In this document: positions 25,532 to 29,345 of the stretch, in pieces
Layout: each line of letters opens with the position of its first letter
Numbering within the stretch: position 1 is the stretch's first letter
From: Candidatus Moraniibacteriota bacterium
GTDB lineage: Bacteria; Patescibacteriota; Minisyncoccia; Moranbacterales; UBA2206
Direction of reading: 5' to 3'
Assembly: GCA_963775955.1 (NCBI GenBank)
Contig: CAVZKT010000002.1
Location: 228,944-292,943 of the forward strand
Length of the DNA stretch: 64,000 bases
Notes under the pieces: generated by a model
Databases searched by the model: none
Told to the model about the DNA's origin: nothing
The model's input: only the letters and a program-made list of their open reading frames with translations
Program-made: the position numbers and the translations under genes

Positions 25532-25555
25532 CAATTTTTTGCGATTAGTCCTGCC
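25532..25555 (+). promoter_or_regulatory. 5' arm of the putative pre-16S processing stem
   Basis: CAATTTTTTGCGATTAGTCCTGCC pairs over all 24 positions (one U-G wobble) with 28516-28539. Confidence 0.65.
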
Positions 25556-26858
25556 ATTCCGAAGCTCGCAAGAGCGAAGGATGGCTAGTACAGAAATGTA
25601 CAAAAACCCTCCTACGTCCGCCTCGGCGGACTTCGGAAGGGTAAAGAGTCTATTCAAACAAAGAATTTATTTTCTTTAAATAAGGTTTATTGATCCGTCT
25701 TCTCCGCCTTCGGCGGATTCGGCGGGATCTAATAAATCTATCGAAAAAAATTATATTTTTTTCGAGATTTATTGAGAGTTTGATCCTAGCTCAGGATGAA
25801 CGCTGGCGGCGTGGATAAGGCATGCAAGTCGAGAGGGTTTAGACCCTCGGCAAACGGGTTAGTAATACATAGGAACTTCCCTGAAGTCGTGAATAATCCG
25901 GAGAAATCCGGAATAATACACGATATGCTCTACGGAGTAAAGATTTATCGCTTCAGGAGGGCCTGTGTCCTATCAGCTTGTTGGTAGTGTAAAGGACTAC
26001 CAAGGCTATGACGGGTAGGGGGTGTGAGAGCACGGCCCCCAACATTGGGACTGAGACACTGCCCAAACTCCTACGGGAGGCTGCAGTCGAGAATATTCGT
26101 CAATGGGCGAAAGCCTGATGGAGCGACGCCGCGTGCGGGATGAAGGCCTTCGGGTTGTAAACCGCTTTTCTGAGGGAAGAATTTCGTGACGGTACCGCAG
26201 GAATAAGAGGTTACTAACTCTGTGCCAGCAGTAGCGGTAATACAGAGACCTCAAGCGTTATCCGGATTTATTGGGCGTAAAGAGCATGTAGGCGGATATA
26301 TTAGTCAGATGTCAAATCTTCGAGCTCAACTCGAAAACTGCATTTGAAACGGTATGTCTAGAGAGAGTGAGAGATCGATGGAACATATGGTGTAGCAGTG
26401 AAATGCGTTGATATCATATGGAACACCAAAGGCGAAGGCATTCGATTGGCACTCTTCTGACGCTGAGATGCGAAAGCGTGGGTAGCGAATGGGATTAGAT
26501 ACCCCAGTAGTCCACGCCGTAAACGATGCATACTAGGTATTAGGAGAATCGACCCTCCTAGTGTCGTAGCTAACGCGTTAAGTATGCCGCCTGGGAAGTA
26601 CGAGCGCAAGCTTAAAACTCAAAGGAATAGACGGGGATCCGCACAAGTGGTGGAGCATGTGGTTTAATTCGACGGTAAGCGAGAAACCTCACCAGGGCTT
26701 GAAACTTAGCTGCATTGTGCAGAAATGCACAAGCCTTCGAGGGTGCTAAGCAGGCGCTGCACGGTTGTCGTCAGCTCGTGTCGTAAGATGTTCTGTTAAG
26801 TCAGGAAACGAGCGCAACCCCTATCGTGTGTTACATTGTGTCACACGAGACTGCCCAG

Positions 26859-27048
26859 AACTTTGCACAAGAGTGCAAAGTAAATTCCAAATTACAAATC
26901 ACAAATCCCAAACAAATTCAAAATTCTAAAATACAAATTTCAAAACTTTTAAAAAATTGTTTTGGACATTTGAATTTTGGTCATTGGTGCTTGTTTGGAA
27001 TTTGGTGCTTAGGATTTGGTGCTTACTTTGTCACTCGTGGACAAAGTT
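26859..27048 (+). other. 190-nt AT-rich expansion replacing the helix-40 loop of the 16S
   Basis: Sits between ACTGCCCAG and CTGGGAGGAAGGTGGGG, where E. coli has CCAGTGATAAACTGG. It begins and ends with similar hairpins (ACTTTGCAC/GTGCAAAGT and CTTTGTC/GACAAAG). The centre folds as a long A/T helix. Confidence 0.8.
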
Positions 27049-27279
27049 CTGGGAGGAAGGTGGGGATGACGTCAAATCAGCGTGGCCCTTTGACGCCCTG
27101 GGCAACACACGTGCTACAATGGTAAGAACAAAGGGTTGCCAAGCCGTAAGGCGGAGCTAATCCCAAAAATCTGATCTCAGTTCGGATTGAGGTCTGCAAC
27201 TCGACCTCATGAAGCCGGAATCACTAGTAATCGTAGATCAGAATGCTACGGTGAATACGTTCTCGGATCTTGTACTCAC

Positions 27280-28151
27280 AATAAAAGCGCTGGGCAGTTG
27301 TAAATTCTAAGGAGTTTAAATCTCCTCTCCCGATTTCGTCATCGGGATGTAGCTGAAAGGTAGTCGTTATCCGCGAGGATAATGGTGAAGGATCTGGAAG
27401 CAAAAAATAGTCCGACAAAATCCGCCAGTTGGCGGAGCGCGCATCGACCTTCGGAAGGGTGGTGAGCGAAGGGAAGACGCAAGAATAAGCGCAGTCGGAA
27501 TGTTTGGAAAAGAGTTTATAATGACCCCAGGAGATCTTATGCCGTTCTGATTATGTGTTATAATATAATCAGGTAATGAAACTTACGCGGCGTAAGAAGT
27601 CAGCTGAATCGTAGTATCCCGAGTTCTCGGGAGAAGGATTCACTCAGTGCATATGGAATTAAATCCAAATTATATCGTTGGTCTGGTTGATGGAGAAGGA
27701 AGTTTTACAGCTTATGTAAAAAATCCGGATTCAACCAAAAAAGTTCAAAGGCGGACAAAAGTTGAGCCAAGGTTTTTTCTGAAACTTATCGAGAAAGATA
27801 AAAAAATTCTTGATGAGCTTAAAAAATTCTTCGGATGCGGCAATGTTTATTTTCAAAAAGATAAGCGCGCCAATCATCAAAATTGTTATCGTTATGAAGT
27901 AGCCAACCGCAGTGATTTGGAAAAAATAATAGTTCCATTTTTCAAAAGGAATTCTTTGCAGTTACGCTCAAAGAAAAGTGACTTTGAAATGTTTTGTAAG
28001 ATTCTCAAGATGGTTCAAAAAAAGGAACATCTGAAAGAATCGGGATTAAGAAAAATATATAATCTCAAGCAAAAGATGCATTAGAGCTCGTCGTGTGCGG
28101 GAAATCCGCAGGCACGATGGGAACATCAATTCGTAGTTTTACGAAAATATT
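27280..28151 (+). mobile_element. 872-nt intervening sequence in the 16S (E. coli ~1397-1400 region) carrying a homing endonuclease gene
   Basis: Interrupts the universal GYACACACCGCCCGT: TTGTACTCAC | insertion | CGCCCGTCACACC. Contains structured GC-rich RNA flanks and the LAGLIDADG ORF. Confidence 0.85.
27653..28084 (+). CDS. LAGLIDADG homing endonuclease (single-motif type)
   Basis: NPNYIVGLVDGEGSF is the LAGLIDADG motif. 143-145 aa, the size of the homodimeric I-CreI-like class. Located inside the rRNA insertion. Confidence 0.85.
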   Translation: MELNPNYIVGLVDGEGSFTAYVKNPDSTKKVQRRTKVEPRFFLKLIEKDKKILDELKKFFGCGNVYFQKDKRANHQNCYRYEVANRSDLEKIIVPFFKRNSLQLRSKKSDFEMFCKILKMVQKKEHLKESGLRKIYNLKQKMH

Positions 28152-28485
28152 CGCCCGTCACACCAAGAGAGTCGGTAATACCCGAAGCTCCTGTTTTAAA
28201 GCAGGAACCACGGTAGGATCGATGATAAGGGTGAAGTCGTAACAAGGCATCCGTAGCGGAAGCTGTGGATGGATCACCTCCTTTCTAGGGAGAAATGATG
28301 GAATTCCAGAGCACTGCACTCCGCCAGTCGGCGGAAAAGGTATTCAGCGTCAAAACTAAATATCGTGTAGTGTGGATTTCATCCGCTGGTCGAATCTACT
28401 GAATTATCTCAGTAGGTAACAGCAATGCCCAGCAGTGCTATATGAAACTGCAGGTGTGTTTGTACACGCACCGATGGACACTCGG

Positions 28486-28521
28486 CCCGCCTGCAACGCT
28501 TTGCGTAGCAATGTGGGCAGG
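28486..28521. repeat. GC-rich hairpin element, copy A
   Basis: CCCGCCTGCAACGCTTTGCGTAGCAATGTGGGCAGG. 29/36 identical to the copy inside proS (56248-56283). Its core is shared with 29837-29874. Confidence 0.75.
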
Positions 28522-28539
28522 ACTAATCGCAAAAGATTG
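28516..28539 (+). promoter_or_regulatory. 3' arm of the putative pre-16S processing stem
   Basis: GGCAGGACTAATCGCAAAAGATTG, complementary to 25532-25555. Confidence 0.65.
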
Positions 28540-28693
28540 TTGATTTTTATAACAAGGCACCCGCATAGGGTGTCTTTGTGTTGGTCTACTCCGCTTGAAA
28601 TATATTTATCACTTGACCGTATTATATAATGGGTATATATTCATAACATATAGACTCAGTTAAAAAGCTAAAATAGAAAGGCGGGTGATTAAT

Positions 28694-28951
28694 ATGCCAC
28701 GACAAGACAAAACAGGCCCGATAGGAATGGGACCCGGAACCGGCCGAGGAATGGGTCCTTGCGAAGCAGGTTACGGTCCAGGACTGGGACGGGGACGCGG
28801 ATATGGAAGAGTGATGTGCGGATGGTTCTATCGGAAATATCAGACAATGCCAGAAGAGGAAAGAAAGGATTTGCTCAAAGAAGAAATTGAAGATTTGAAG
28901 CAAGAAATGCAAATGGCGGAAGAAGAACTGAAGGGACTGGAAAAGGAGTAA
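28694..28951 (+). CDS. DUF5320-family protein
   Basis: MPRQDKTGPIGMGPGTGRGMGPC... Gly-rich N-terminus plus a C-terminal coiled coil (EEIEDLKQEMQMAEEELKGLE). ATG 28694 follows AGGCGGGTG. Confidence 0.7.
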   Translation: MPRQDKTGPIGMGPGTGRGMGPCEAGYGPGLGRGRGYGRVMCGWFYRKYQTMPEEERKDLLKEEIEDLKQEMQMAEEELKGLEKE

Positions 28952-29043
28952 TTTCCATCAGAAGCAGTCTTTCTCCTCCTTTAGCTAGCAGAGAAGGAGA
29001 AGGTTGTTTTTGGTGGTATAATCAAGTCAATAAAGAAAAATTT

Positions 29044-29319
29044 ATGGTGAGACCAAGAATGTGTCGGAGGCTTCGTTTCAAGCCAAAAGCCCGCTATTTT
29101 AAACCACGAGGAATTCCAATGCATCAATTGGAAGAAGTGGTTTTAACCAAGGAGGAAATAGAAGCTGTGAAGCTCAATGATTTTGACGGTTTGGAACAAA
29201 CTGAAGCCTCGGAAAAGATGAATACCTCGCAAAGCACTTTTCAGCGGATTTTAGCTTCCGCTAGAGTTAAAATTGCCGAAGCGATTATAAGAGGCAAAGC
29301 GCTGAAAATTGAAGAATAG
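29044..29319 (+). CDS. DUF134 (UPF0251) putative DNA-binding protein
   Basis: MCRRLRFKPKARYFKPRGIP...LTKEEIEAVKLNDFDGLEQTEASEKMNTSQSTFQRIL is the family pattern (HTH-like). Confidence 0.75.
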   Translation: MVRPRMCRRLRFKPKARYFKPRGIPMHQLEEVVLTKEEIEAVKLNDFDGLEQTEASEKMNTSQSTFQRILASARVKIAEAIIRGKALKIEE

Positions 29320-29324
29320 CCAGG

Positions 29325-29345
29325 GGACTAATCGCAAAAGATTGT
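29325..29345. repeat. Third copy of GGACTAATCGCAAAAGATTGT
   Basis: 21/21 identical to 28520-28540. Together the two copies bracket the DUF5320-DUF134 pair. Confidence 0.85.

Follow-up and report, generated by a model that had tools for sequence, protein, structure and literature searches.

A 16S rRNA processing-stem arm as a probable attachment site for integrative elements in Moranbacteria

In Moranbacteria (CPR), the sequences that flank the 16S rRNA gene probably work on two levels, as a processing stem in the RNA and, through the 3' arm, as an attachment site in the DNA, and an insert without an integrase probably occupies that site in the window described here (the whole 64-kb stretch of DNA that was analysed). 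A third copy of the stem arm, found downstream of the gene, was most likely left by a site-specific insertion. Comparison with related sequences indicates that mobile elements carrying their own integrase repeatedly insert at the 3' stem arm in this group. By analogy with these, the segment at 28541-29324 is read as an integrase-less islet lying between two copies of the attachment site.

Results

The 16S rRNA gene occupies 25776..28286 on the plus strand (Rfam SSU_rRNA_bacteria, 1279.8 bits; end motifs read directly). Two insertions break it up, one AT-rich (about 26866-27045) and the other intron-like and about 870 nt long (about 27283-28150); both are missing from relatives in blastn alignments. 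A LAGLIDADG homing-endonuclease reading frame in the inserted DNA (27653..28084, plus strand; Pfam LAGLIDADG_1, 2.6e-17) has homologues of 74-96% identity inside the 16S genes of loci L011, L018, L032, L117, L122 and L131. The Rfam match stops at 27331 because the LAGLIDADG-encoding insertion splits the gene; this position was rejected as the end of the 16S, and the true 3' end (GGATCACCTCCTTTCT) lies at 28286, where the initial annotation had assumed it. As that annotation also stated, the window contains no 23S, 5S or spacer tRNA gene.

The leader (5') arm of the stem, at 25532..25555 on the plus strand, is complementary to the trailer (3') arm at 28516-28539 in 24 of 24 positions with one U-G pair, exactly as first described; a repeat finder scores the same inverted repeat as 24 nt and 96% complementary. 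With one bulge the pairing reaches about 34 bp (25520-25555 with 28516-28550). When leader and trailer were folded together, a check proposed with the initial annotation, the minimum-energy structure paired 25532-25552 with 28519-28539. The arm is partly palindromic, so that the leader can also fold on itself, in a local hairpin (TAATCGCAA-TTTT-TTGCGATTA, 25526-25547) that is 98% paired and shows covariation. Between the mature 3' end and the stem arm, the trailer (28287..28515, plus strand) is partly alignable to those of L111, L038, L040, L093 and L133. A GC-rich hairpin had been reported beside the trailer arm. It is present, at 28485-28521, but is a separate, dispersed palindrome and not the arm's own, with further copies at 29839-29875 (minus strand), at 56247-56283 and in other genomes.

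The arms are far from lacking conservation or covariation in relatives: 36 Moranbacteria 16S loci have matching leader and trailer arms at 90-240 nt from the gene, and the trailer-arm consensus, 90-240 nt after the 16S, is GGACYAAYCRCAAAAGATTGTGA. The alignment of the 36 loci is gapless and 95.3% of its cells pair; 11 of the 23 stem pairs have changed on both sides, one of them being G-C in 24 loci, A-U in 12 and unpaired in none. The U-G wobble is retained in 32 of the 36. Registers slid along the arms pair in 34-48% of cells, and none of 500 shuffles matched the observed pairing values. These comparisons of sequence indicate that the arms are an ordinary conserved pre-16S processing stem and bear out the original proposal of a leader-trailer processing duplex. 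In the rrn operons of Escherichia coli and Bacillus subtilis the pre-16S leader-trailer stem is a substrate of RNase III. The Moranbacteria share with them complementary 16S-flanking sequences, a helix of more than 20 bp, and conservation of that helix with covariation; they differ in the arm sequence, which is partly palindromic and, within the clade, conserved to an unusual degree. A terminator follows the stem here because the 16S is not linked to a 23S gene. From what is known of bacterial rRNA maturation, the nuclease cutting the stem is presumably RNase III; no RNase III signature motif occurs in the 64-kb window, which covers only this part of the genome.

The 21-mer shared by the arms has exactly three sites in the 64 kb when up to three mismatches are allowed, against none expected from 100 shuffles: 25531-25551 (minus strand, 2 mismatches), 28520-28540 (plus, exact) and 29325-29345 (plus, exact). 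The exact downstream recurrence noted at the outset is thus real, and the repeat finder extends it to a direct repeat of 28 nt at 89% identity (28520-28547 and 29325-29352). We read the trailer arm (28516..28540, plus strand) as a proximal, attL-like copy of an attachment site and the third arm copy (29325..29347, plus strand) as a distal, attR-like one. The latter fits the clade consensus, its final GA included. Right after the proximal arm stands a terminator-like hairpin, CACCC-GCATA-GGGTG, with an interrupted T tract (TCTTTGTGTT; 28558..28582, plus strand), whose stem is also reported by the scan on the minus strand; relatives have the same CACC...GGTG hairpin with a full T run after the arm. 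Beyond the distal copy lies an intrinsic terminator, ACCGC-TTAAGG-GCGGT followed by TTTTTT (29360..29381, plus strand), which probably belongs to the 16S transcription unit as its resident terminator; the tail of this terminator, TTTTTTGCGTTG, is common to L130, L132 and L111. Together, third copy and terminator align to the arm and terminator of L130 (86% over 63 nt) and also to L131, L137 and the second trailer of L018. As to whether both arms share one primary transcript, promoter-like sites precede the leader arm at 24712-24740, 24801-24828 and 25430-25458, and a terminator-like hairpin occurs only past the trailer arm.

The inserted segment (28541..29324, plus strand) measures 784 bp and has the exact 21-nt repeat on both sides. 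Pfam and the repeat finder agree with the initial annotation that genes for DUF5320 (28694..28951, plus strand; PF17253, 1.1e-17) and DUF134 (29044..29319, plus strand; PF02001, 1e-20, with weaker Sigma70_r4 matches) sit between the direct repeats. They are preceded by a sigma-70-type promoter, TTGACC-17-TATATT (28613..28641, plus strand), within an upstream block, TTGAC(A/C)GTATTATATAATGGGTATATATTCATAA, that is nearly identical 5' of DUF5320 in L001, L003, L005, L017 and L141. The DUF134 product is predicted from its sequence to be a DNA-binding protein with a fold like sigma-70 region 4. It has 1352 homologues, the nearest (75-88% identity) in Moranbacteria, and the exact protein is absent from the collection searched. 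The gene pair is found in three unrelated contexts (L001, L003, L005) and adjoins a 16S trailer or an orphan trailer in L017, L141 and L142. The 28541..29324 segment contains no recombinase gene and, by Pfam, no transposase; tblastn with the integrases of relatives detected neither an integrase nor an integrase fragment in the 64-kb window. Deleting 28541-29345 in silico recreates the arm-spacer-terminator arrangement of L130 and L131, and the emptied site is alignable to both. In the comparison of relatives proposed initially, no near-identical strain with an empty site was found.

Loci with integrases suggest how such a segment could have arrived. About ten loci have, past the arm and terminator, a conserved gene for a tyrosine integrase. 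In L133 a Pfam Phage_integrase gene (5.7e-42) begins about 40 nt past the arm, in an island that also has a second integrase, a terminase small-subunit-like gene and a helicase and that ends in a remnant of the 16S 3' end about 9.3 kb away. Homologues of this integrase (41-66% identity) occupy the same place after arm and terminator in L137, L056, L128, L136 and L088, as did all three further homologues that were looked up, and the loci in which an integrase stands beside an intact 16S end are L133, L137, L056, L128, L136, L088, L146, L148 and L149. In most integrase-bearing loci the DNA examined ends before a second repeat. L148 has a complete island of 6.3 kb, with 104/105-nt direct repeats lying 6327 bp apart; they span the last 14 nt of the 16S (ATCACCTCCTTTCT) and the trailer through to the arm (...AAAAGTTTGC), and enclose int1, DpnI, a Rep protein (REP_ORF2-G2P) and int2. 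The L148 arm forms a duplex of -34 kcal/mol with the L148 leader. Identity between the L148 repeats breaks off at the arm position where that of the window repeat also stops (...AAAAGATTGT|).

Seven or more other genomes or contigs have additional trailer-arm copies around unrelated cargo; a second or third copy brackets unrelated genes in L018/L132, L023, L060, L134, L135 and L146. Repeats and their boundaries and the variable cargo can be read directly in the sequences, as can the association with integrases in relatives. Within one genome both copies carry the species' own variant of the arm. The cargo includes an AAA/DUF4143 ATPase, a pentapeptide-repeat protein and membrane proteins, with no recombinase among it. 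Most species have a single arm (about 22 of the 25 with at least 2 kb of downstream DNA). The direct repeats of L023 and L060 are about 85 nt long, and the window repeat (21 nt exact; 28 nt at 89%) is far below the 85-105 nt of relatives. Since such duplications mark insertions in relatives, the early suggestion of an insertion or duplication at the stem arm is supported.

Discussion

In the RNA, the leader (25532-25555) and trailer (28516-28539) would form a helix of 24-34 bp around the whole 16S and provide the substrate for its excision, most likely by RNase III. In the DNA, the 3' arm would be the right-hand end of an attachment site for tyrosine-integrase elements. An incoming element would bring its own arm, sometimes with the whole trailer and the last 14-20 nt of the 16S, as well as its own terminator, and after insertion the displaced resident arm and terminator would stand at the distal end of the insert. 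As the element carries its own arm and terminator, the 16S would keep a working stem and terminator after insertion. Applied to the window, copy 2 and the CACCC hairpin would be the element-side junction, and copy 3 with the ACCGC terminator the displaced resident end. The islet may be what is left of a larger element, or else a small cassette that an integrase acting in trans has put in place. That recombination occurred inside the arm, and in which direction the event ran, are inferences. The reading of 28541-29324 as an islet draws on the islands of relatives and on the L148 repeat, which ends at the same arm position; it proceeds by analogy since the 64-kb window has no integrase. Site-specific recombination at the DNA level, which the initial annotation had not considered, appears to fit the comparative data best.

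Duplication without a recombinase is the alternative that survives best, and we consider it improbable. The end of the 16S and the arm could act as homology anchors for DNA from related cells, by homology-facilitated illegitimate recombination or by single-crossover integration of circularised fragments, and the direct repeats left by either route would differ in extent. On the left side, the limits of the duplicated trailer do vary widely: the arm alone is duplicated in the window, L023 and L130, and the limit lies 20 nt upstream in L060, in mid-trailer in L132 and L134, and inside the 16S in L018 and L148. Several islets, moreover, have no recombinase. However, on the right, identity stops at one and the same nucleotide of the arm in the window and in L148, which is distant, and the presence of one integrase family beside arm and terminator in about ten loci, and in every homologue looked up, would not be expected from chance synteny. 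A repeat of 21 nt is also at or below the usual minimum for RecA-dependent crossover.

One could also envision that the distal copy has been kept for use in the RNA, with the protein genes carried on the rRNA precursor by read-through. The leader would pair with either arm, giving alternative processing, or RNase III would release a DUF5320-DUF134 mRNA. Leader and copy 3 can form a stable duplex of 21-23 bp (-31.2 kcal/mol, compared with -39.1 for the leader and proximal arm), the interrupted T tract of the proximal terminator makes read-through plausible, and distal arms are intact in seven loci (0-2 mismatches in 23), even beside decayed 16S remnants, as in L018. The arm is, however, the slowest-evolving segment of the trailer in the clade, and an intact copy therefore need not mean selection on that copy. 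When a read-through transcript was modelled, the proximal arm was still the leader's partner and copy 3 closed into a local hairpin; alternative processing, possible in itself, is left unsupported because predicted folds favour the proximal arm. Nothing here supports the suggestion that the protein genes belong to the rRNA transcript: the cassette follows a terminator-like hairpin and has its own promoter, which is conserved in relatives where the cassette lies far from any 16S. Moreover, cargo is unrelated between genomes and includes whole integrase islands of 6-9 kb, which one would not expect as rRNA-linked genes. Retention of the third copy for a role in the RNA seems unlikely, slightly more so than recombinase-free duplication.

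It is very hard to see the arm as an operator. Here the palindrome (TCGCAA-N4-TTGYGA) would be bound by the DUF134 protein, regulating its own operon and the 16S leader, an idea prompted by the sigma-70 region-4-like helix-turn-helix of DUF134 and by the partly palindromic motif on both sides of the operon. Yet the arms occur at the 16S loci of about 40 species, where neighbouring genes are unrelated to DUF134, and the motif is missing around DUF5320-DUF134 in L001, L003 and L005; compensatory changes between leader and trailer fit RNA pairing and not a protein site, and the conserved sequence 5' of DUF5320 is a different block, overlapping the promoter. That the third copy arose from a mis-join or collapsed repeat in assembly, a concern raised initially and kept alive by a seryl-tRNA synthetase gene (21857-23152) split over several frames, which hints at indel errors, can practically be dismissed, since the same architecture recurs in independent NCBI, JGI, ENA and Logan assemblies, a repeat of 21 nt is not long enough to misdirect assembly, and both copies have unique, meaningful flanks (a stop codon; a canonical terminator).

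The site-specific insertion that we favour has familiar counterparts. Genomic islands and prophages integrate at the 3' ends of tRNA and tmRNA genes by means of tyrosine integrases. As in those islands, the direct repeats in the window and in relatives come from the 3' part of a structural-RNA transcription unit, the element would supply a replacement 3' end, and cargo differs by genome, is often defence-related (DpnI, Abi genes) and is absent from unoccupied sites in relatives; tandem arrays also occur in Moranbacteria. The integrase gene adjoins the intact RNA gene in relatives and not in the window, and without one, the window insert can be classed as no more than an integrase-less islet at a site of this type. 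The Moranbacteria target differs in consisting of the last 14-20 nt of the 16S, the trailer and the stem arm. Cis-mobilisable elements (CIMEs) are integrase-less islets bounded by att sites, and the window insert resembles them in being short, in having two att-like copies and no recombinase of its own, and in lying at a site used by integrase-bearing relatives. It may be a decayed remnant.

On balance, we lean towards one sequence having two jobs, as the 3' arm of the 16S helix in the RNA and as the recombination end of an attachment site in the DNA, one that serves a widespread family of Moranbacteria integrative elements. If so, these elements would use the organism's sole 16S gene in the way that tRNA-targeting islands use tRNA genes. 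They would have to bring a compatible stem arm and terminator, tying their host range to rRNA maturation, and this may help explain the unusual sequence conservation of the arm. On this view, small units that lack an integrase, the DUF5320-DUF134 islet among them, would be cassettes shuffled in trans at the site. For this gene pair, found 3' of the 16S in three lineages or more, old synteny instead of repeated insertion is also conceivable.

Integration at the 3' ends of RNA genes is of a known kind; the 16S trailer as a target appears to be new, and our literature searches found no description of it. The tycheposons of Prochlorococcus, whose describing paper never mentions rRNA in its main text, target tRNA genes (bioRxiv 10.1101/2020.12.28.424599). 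Like the Moranbacteria islands, they are elements with a tyrosine recombinase and have partial copies of the target RNA gene on either side; later integrations push older elements outward, degenerate remnants have extra partial repeats, and some, like L133, encode a helicase and the small subunit of a terminase. The likeness drawn here is one of layout and gene content.

Two other classes of element were rejected. In integrons, IntI is divergent from attI and each cassette ends in an attC hairpin with R''/R' core sites; in the relatives studied here the integrase sits inside the repeats, co-oriented with the 16S, and the repeats are 16S trailer sequence. The window cassette's own promoter also opposes its being an integron gene cassette. 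Transposons are marked by a transposase, terminal inverted repeats and a short duplication of fixed length; no transposase is present in the insert, and repeat lengths vary from 21 to 105 nt. For the Xer/dif system, in which host XerC/D use one dif-type site of 28 bp (11-6-11) at the replication terminus, the comparison points both ways. The integrase family found beside the arm has 1263 matches at E<1e-40, many labelled XerC/XerD by their sources, and is so abundant and conserved that a host-encoded recombinase is conceivable. In every species, on the other hand, the arm goes with the 16S and shows RNA covariation with the leader, and in L148 the integrase lies within the repeats.

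The arms form an ordinary pre-16S processing helix

Allowing up to three mismatches, the 21-mer GGACTAATCGCAAAAGATTGT is found at only three sites in the 64-kb window, against none expected by chance: once inverted (25531-25551) and twice direct (28520-28540 and 29325-29345). The inverted copy and the first direct copy lie in arms on either side of the 16S gene. All 24 positions of the leader arm (25532-25555) pair with the trailer arm (28516-28539), one of them as U-G, in a duplex of -39.1 kcal/mol, and a single bulge lengthens this helix to about 34 bp. The positions of all three arm sequences and the complementarity are exactly as the initial annotation described them. 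Co-folding, which it proposed as a check, gives the same pairing: with a tetraloop in place of the 16S, the minimum-energy fold of leader and trailer joins 25532-25552 to 28519-28539.

The arms are also conserved and covary in relatives, two properties whose absence the initial annotation would have counted against its reading. The closest homologues of the window's DUF134 protein come from Candidatus Moranbacteria/Parcubacteria (75-88% identity), and the signature of its 16S retrieved 120 loci, almost all labelled Moraniibacteriota. The trailer-arm motif (consensus GGACYAAYCRCAAAAGATTGTGA) occurs 90-240 nt after the 16S in 42 related loci; the stem alignment consists of the 36 loci, including the window, in which this arm is matched by its complement 90-240 nt upstream of the 16S. 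RNAduplex applied to 350 x 400-nt flanks produced over-extended duplexes useless as a statistic (background -120, window -168), and motif-anchored extraction with pair counting was used in its place. The 36 leader/trailer loci align without gaps, 95.3% of the cells in the 23-bp helix are paired, and both partners vary in 11 pairs: at one of these, 24 loci have G-C, 12 have A-U and no locus is unpaired, while another is A-U in 32 and G-C in 4. None of 500 shuffles reached the observed values, and pairing falls to 34-48% when the partner is slid by one to three columns. Bacterial 16S rRNA is released during maturation from a leader-trailer helix, normally by RNase III. The arms are such an ordinary processing helix, a further case of a well-known kind; RNase III cleavage itself we infer from established knowledge. 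Unusually, the arm is strongly conserved in sequence and not just in pairing, down to the U-G, which is retained in 32 of the 36 loci. Also unusual is that the leader arm, being partly palindromic, forms a local hairpin, which covaries and is 98% paired.

A third arm copy brackets a two-gene unit

The segment that separates the two direct copies holds a terminator-like hairpin whose T tract is weak (28558-28582), a sigma-70-type promoter (28613-28641), and the DUF5320 (28694-28951) and DUF134 (29044-29319) genes; a clean terminator (ACCGC, 29360-29381) follows the third copy. Each direct copy belongs to its own arm-spacer-terminator module of the clade's canonical type, and the two modules are identical over the arm only. 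When 28541-29345 is deleted in silico, the reconstructed empty junction (...AAAAGATTGT|GAAATTTAGC...) aligns with relatives that have a single arm, at 86% over 63 nt in L130 and 82% over 66 nt in L131.

The DUF5320-DUF134 unit, with a strikingly conserved promoter block, occurs in three unrelated chromosomal contexts in other Moranbacteria, and in L017, L141 and L142 it adjoins a 16S trailer or an orphan one. No arm motif was found around it in L001-L006, so the cassette does not everywhere carry conserved terminal repeats of its own. The look-up gave no exact match to the window's DUF134 protein and hence no same-strain empty site for comparison; a literature search on DUF134 and DUF5320 function gave nothing specific.

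Extra arm copies and integrases in related genomes

Extra trailer-type copies follow the first in the window's closest relative and several other genomes. In that relative (L018), two membrane-protein genes are followed by a decayed 3' end of the 16S and then by a second trailer that is complete, and the same contig bears a third unit (L132). An 85-nt repeat flanks two genes in L023, where it consists of arm and terminator, and an AAA/DUF4143 ATPase gene in L060; L134 and L135 have further cargo between two copies, and L146 has three units in tandem. Arm copies inside one genome share that species' own variant; the cargo bears no relation from one case to the next and contains no recombinase. 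“Orphan” trailers, comprising the last 14-20 nt of the 16S (ATCACCTCCTTTCTAGGGAG), trailer, arm and terminator, sit after ordinary protein genes in L134, L135, L141 and at the right end of L133. In L130 an arm-only copy with a canonical terminator stands 15 nt past a stop codon, just as the window's third copy does. Among species with at least 2 kb of downstream DNA fetched, about 3 of 25 have a second copy.

Other loci carry an integrase at this position. In L133, whose 16S is 93% identical to the window's, a tyrosine integrase gene (Phage_integrase, 5.7e-42) begins no more than about 40 nt past arm and terminator. Beyond it are genes for another integrase, a helicase, a DUF4145 protein and a terminase small-subunit-like product; an orphan 16S end with trailer lies about 9.3 kb from the 16S end, at the contig edge. 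Homologues of this integrase (41-66% identical) directly follow arm and terminator in L137, L056, L128, L136 and L088, and lie further downstream of the arm in L046 and L021. The family comprises 1263 proteins at E<1e-40, and all three additional members whose contigs were fetched occupy the same position, with variable downstream cargo (IS1595 transposase, the restriction enzyme DpnI, Abi proteins, rolling-circle-type Rep, second integrase). L148 holds a complete island: a 104/105-nt direct repeat, 6327 bp apart, encloses int1 (the integrase next to arm and terminator), DpnI, Rep and a second integrase, int2. The repeat begins with the final 14 nt of the 16S, takes in the trailer and ends at ...GGGCAACCACAAAAGTTTGC. 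Its arm forms a duplex with the leader of L148 (22 bp, -34 kcal/mol) and is therefore the same functional element as the window's arm, and repeat identity ends at the same arm position in L148 (...TTTGC|) and the window (...ATTGT|). Within the fetched 8-kb blocks, a second repeat was absent from integrase-bearing loci other than L133, L146 and L148. These sequence comparisons suggest a wider pattern worth following up, in which integrative elements would use the 16S trailer arm as a landing site across Moranbacteria.

The DNA just left of the orphan 16S remnant is homologous in L133 (10560-10700) and L134 (1985-2090; TTATGCAGTAGAATCATAGTRTAARTTAACAAC...) and looks like the conserved right end of an element. 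The U-G wobble (columns 16/67 of alignment A1, window 25539/28535; conserved in 32 of 36 species, with U in the leader and G in the trailer's AAAAGATT) makes the leader copy unlike the trailer copy at the DNA level, in the arm part nearest the repeat boundary. This difference might keep the integrase from recombining the inverted copies.

Origin of the third copy

Duplication of an attachment site best explains the third copy, which would be a recombination scar and not a new RNA mechanism. The DNA at 28541-29324 would have been inserted by recombination at the arm, leaving the second copy as the junction adjoining the 16S and the third, with its ACCGC terminator, as the displaced resident end; a circular form would carry the predicted junction ...GAATAGCCAGG-arm-TGATTTTTAT.... 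Where the crossover fell, that such DNA is excised and which way the event ran are all inferred. The insertion at the stem arm envisaged by the initial annotation gains support from duplicated arms that bracket unrelated cargo and from the integrase adjoining the arm in relatives. No integrase was found in the 64-kb window, so the islet would be a remnant left by decay or else a small unit that an integrase inserted in trans. An integrase of its own is a defining feature of integrative elements; lacking one, the insert is classed here as an integrase-less islet located at a site of this type rather than as an element.

Loci differ in where the duplicated trailer has its left boundary, which leaves room for homology-driven recombination without a dedicated enzyme as the source of the duplications. 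The association with the 16S could partly be old synteny, DUF5320...DUF134 lying downstream of the 16S in several lineages. It is also conceivable that a host-resident recombinase acts at the arm, as the integrase family is abundant and its members carry “XerC/XerD” labels; however, where present, the integrase is always inside the repeats, next to variable, defence-rich cargo. Alternative rRNA processing, with the leader pairing with either downstream arm, is thermodynamically possible (-31.2 kcal/mol for the leader and third copy), but we found nothing in its support, and the unit's own promoter and the predicted folds disfavour it. The observation made by the initial annotation is confirmed; of its interpretation, the insertion is supported and alternative processing is not. 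Readings as a DUF134 operator, integron, dif site or transposon were considered and set aside.

Relation to known genomic islands

The Moranbacteria insertion pattern works like that of tRNA- and tmRNA-targeting islands and resembles the tycheposons of Prochlorococcus in its partial-gene repeats, tandem pile-ups, degenerate remnants and terS/helicase-bearing members. In contrast to these, the target is the 3' end of the 16S transcription unit, as far as the processing-stem arm, which is part of it. Literature searches on rRNA-gene attachment sites and CPR integrative elements gave nothing specific and no description of a 16S-trailer target. If the pattern is true, integrase targeting of structural-RNA 3' ends extends from tRNA and tmRNA to rRNA, with a constraint that tRNA genes do not impose: incoming DNA must rebuild a long-range RNA helix whose leader is 2-3 kb away. 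The flank of the single 16S gene would then be a main route by which foreign genes enter a CPR lineage otherwise thought poor in mobile elements. This would account for Moranbacteria contigs that often break, or bear odd 16S-end fragments, near the rRNA gene, and arm plus int1 would offer a sequence handle with which to search these genomes for islands. Within the window the outcome is more modest: an ordinary processing stem and a recombination scar.

Other features of the locus

The 16S gene (about 25776-28286) is split by an insertion encoding a LAGLIDADG endonuclease, which is why its Rfam match ends at 27331. This intron-like insertion (27283-28150, about 870 nt) has its endonuclease ORF at 27653-28084; in relatives' 16S the endonuclease is in the same place or absent. 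Another insertion (26866-27045, about 180 nt) is AT-rich and folds into a long hairpin. The 64-kb window yielded no 23S, 5S or spacer tRNA, as the initial annotation had remarked. At the E-value threshold, Rfam searches of 24300-30300 returned, besides the 16S, only chance matches (a group II fragment and two plant miRNAs), with no known RNA in the 700-nt gene-free stretch upstream of the leader arm. The roughly 800 nt 5' of that arm (24700-25530), with neither a convincing ORF nor an Rfam match, contain a perfect 16-nt inverted repeat (24715-24730/24786-24801) with a strong promoter-like site next to each of its arms (24712-24740 and 24801-24828). They also include a hairpin region (25379-25475) that at least 10 relatives share, and the stretch could be an RNA gene of unknown type or a long, structured leader of the rRNA. 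The seryl-tRNA synthetase gene at 21857-23152 apparently consists of four overlapping ORFs in different frames, reflecting either a pseudogene or indel errors in the assembly.

The surroundings of the DUF5320 promoter (28595-28660; TTGAC(A/C)GTATTATATAATGGGTATATATTCATAA) are almost invariant in L001, L003, L005, L017 and L141 despite different contexts, which suggests a conserved operator and possibly autoregulation by DUF134. A variable middle gene often separates DUF5320 from DUF134: a cation-efflux transporter in L005 (4596-6276), a permease in L017 (6352-8000), a pyruvoyl arginine decarboxylase in L142 (1990-3170). Neighbours are commonly metal-related (ArsR/ArsP, ZIP, cupin), and the two genes look as though they form a regulatory bracket enclosing exchangeable ones.

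A GC-rich palindrome (GCCCGCCTGCAACGCTTTGCGTAGCAATGTGGGCAGG and variants, about 37 nt) is dispersed: it occurs at 28485-28521 (+), 29839-29875 (-) and 56247-56283 (+), and also in L010, L011, L032, L060, L109 and L123; it behaves like a REP-type repeat in Moranbacteria. The first copy abuts the trailer arm and contributes GGCAGG/CCTGCC pairs to the stem. The stretch 29889-30030, downstream of the third arm copy, holds a cluster of AACATTCT/AGAATGTT repeats and palindromes, one of them a perfect 13+13 palindrome (29958-29983). The cluster may be a regulator binding site, and L130 has a similar motif at its left end (1-45), upstream of its arm-only copy.
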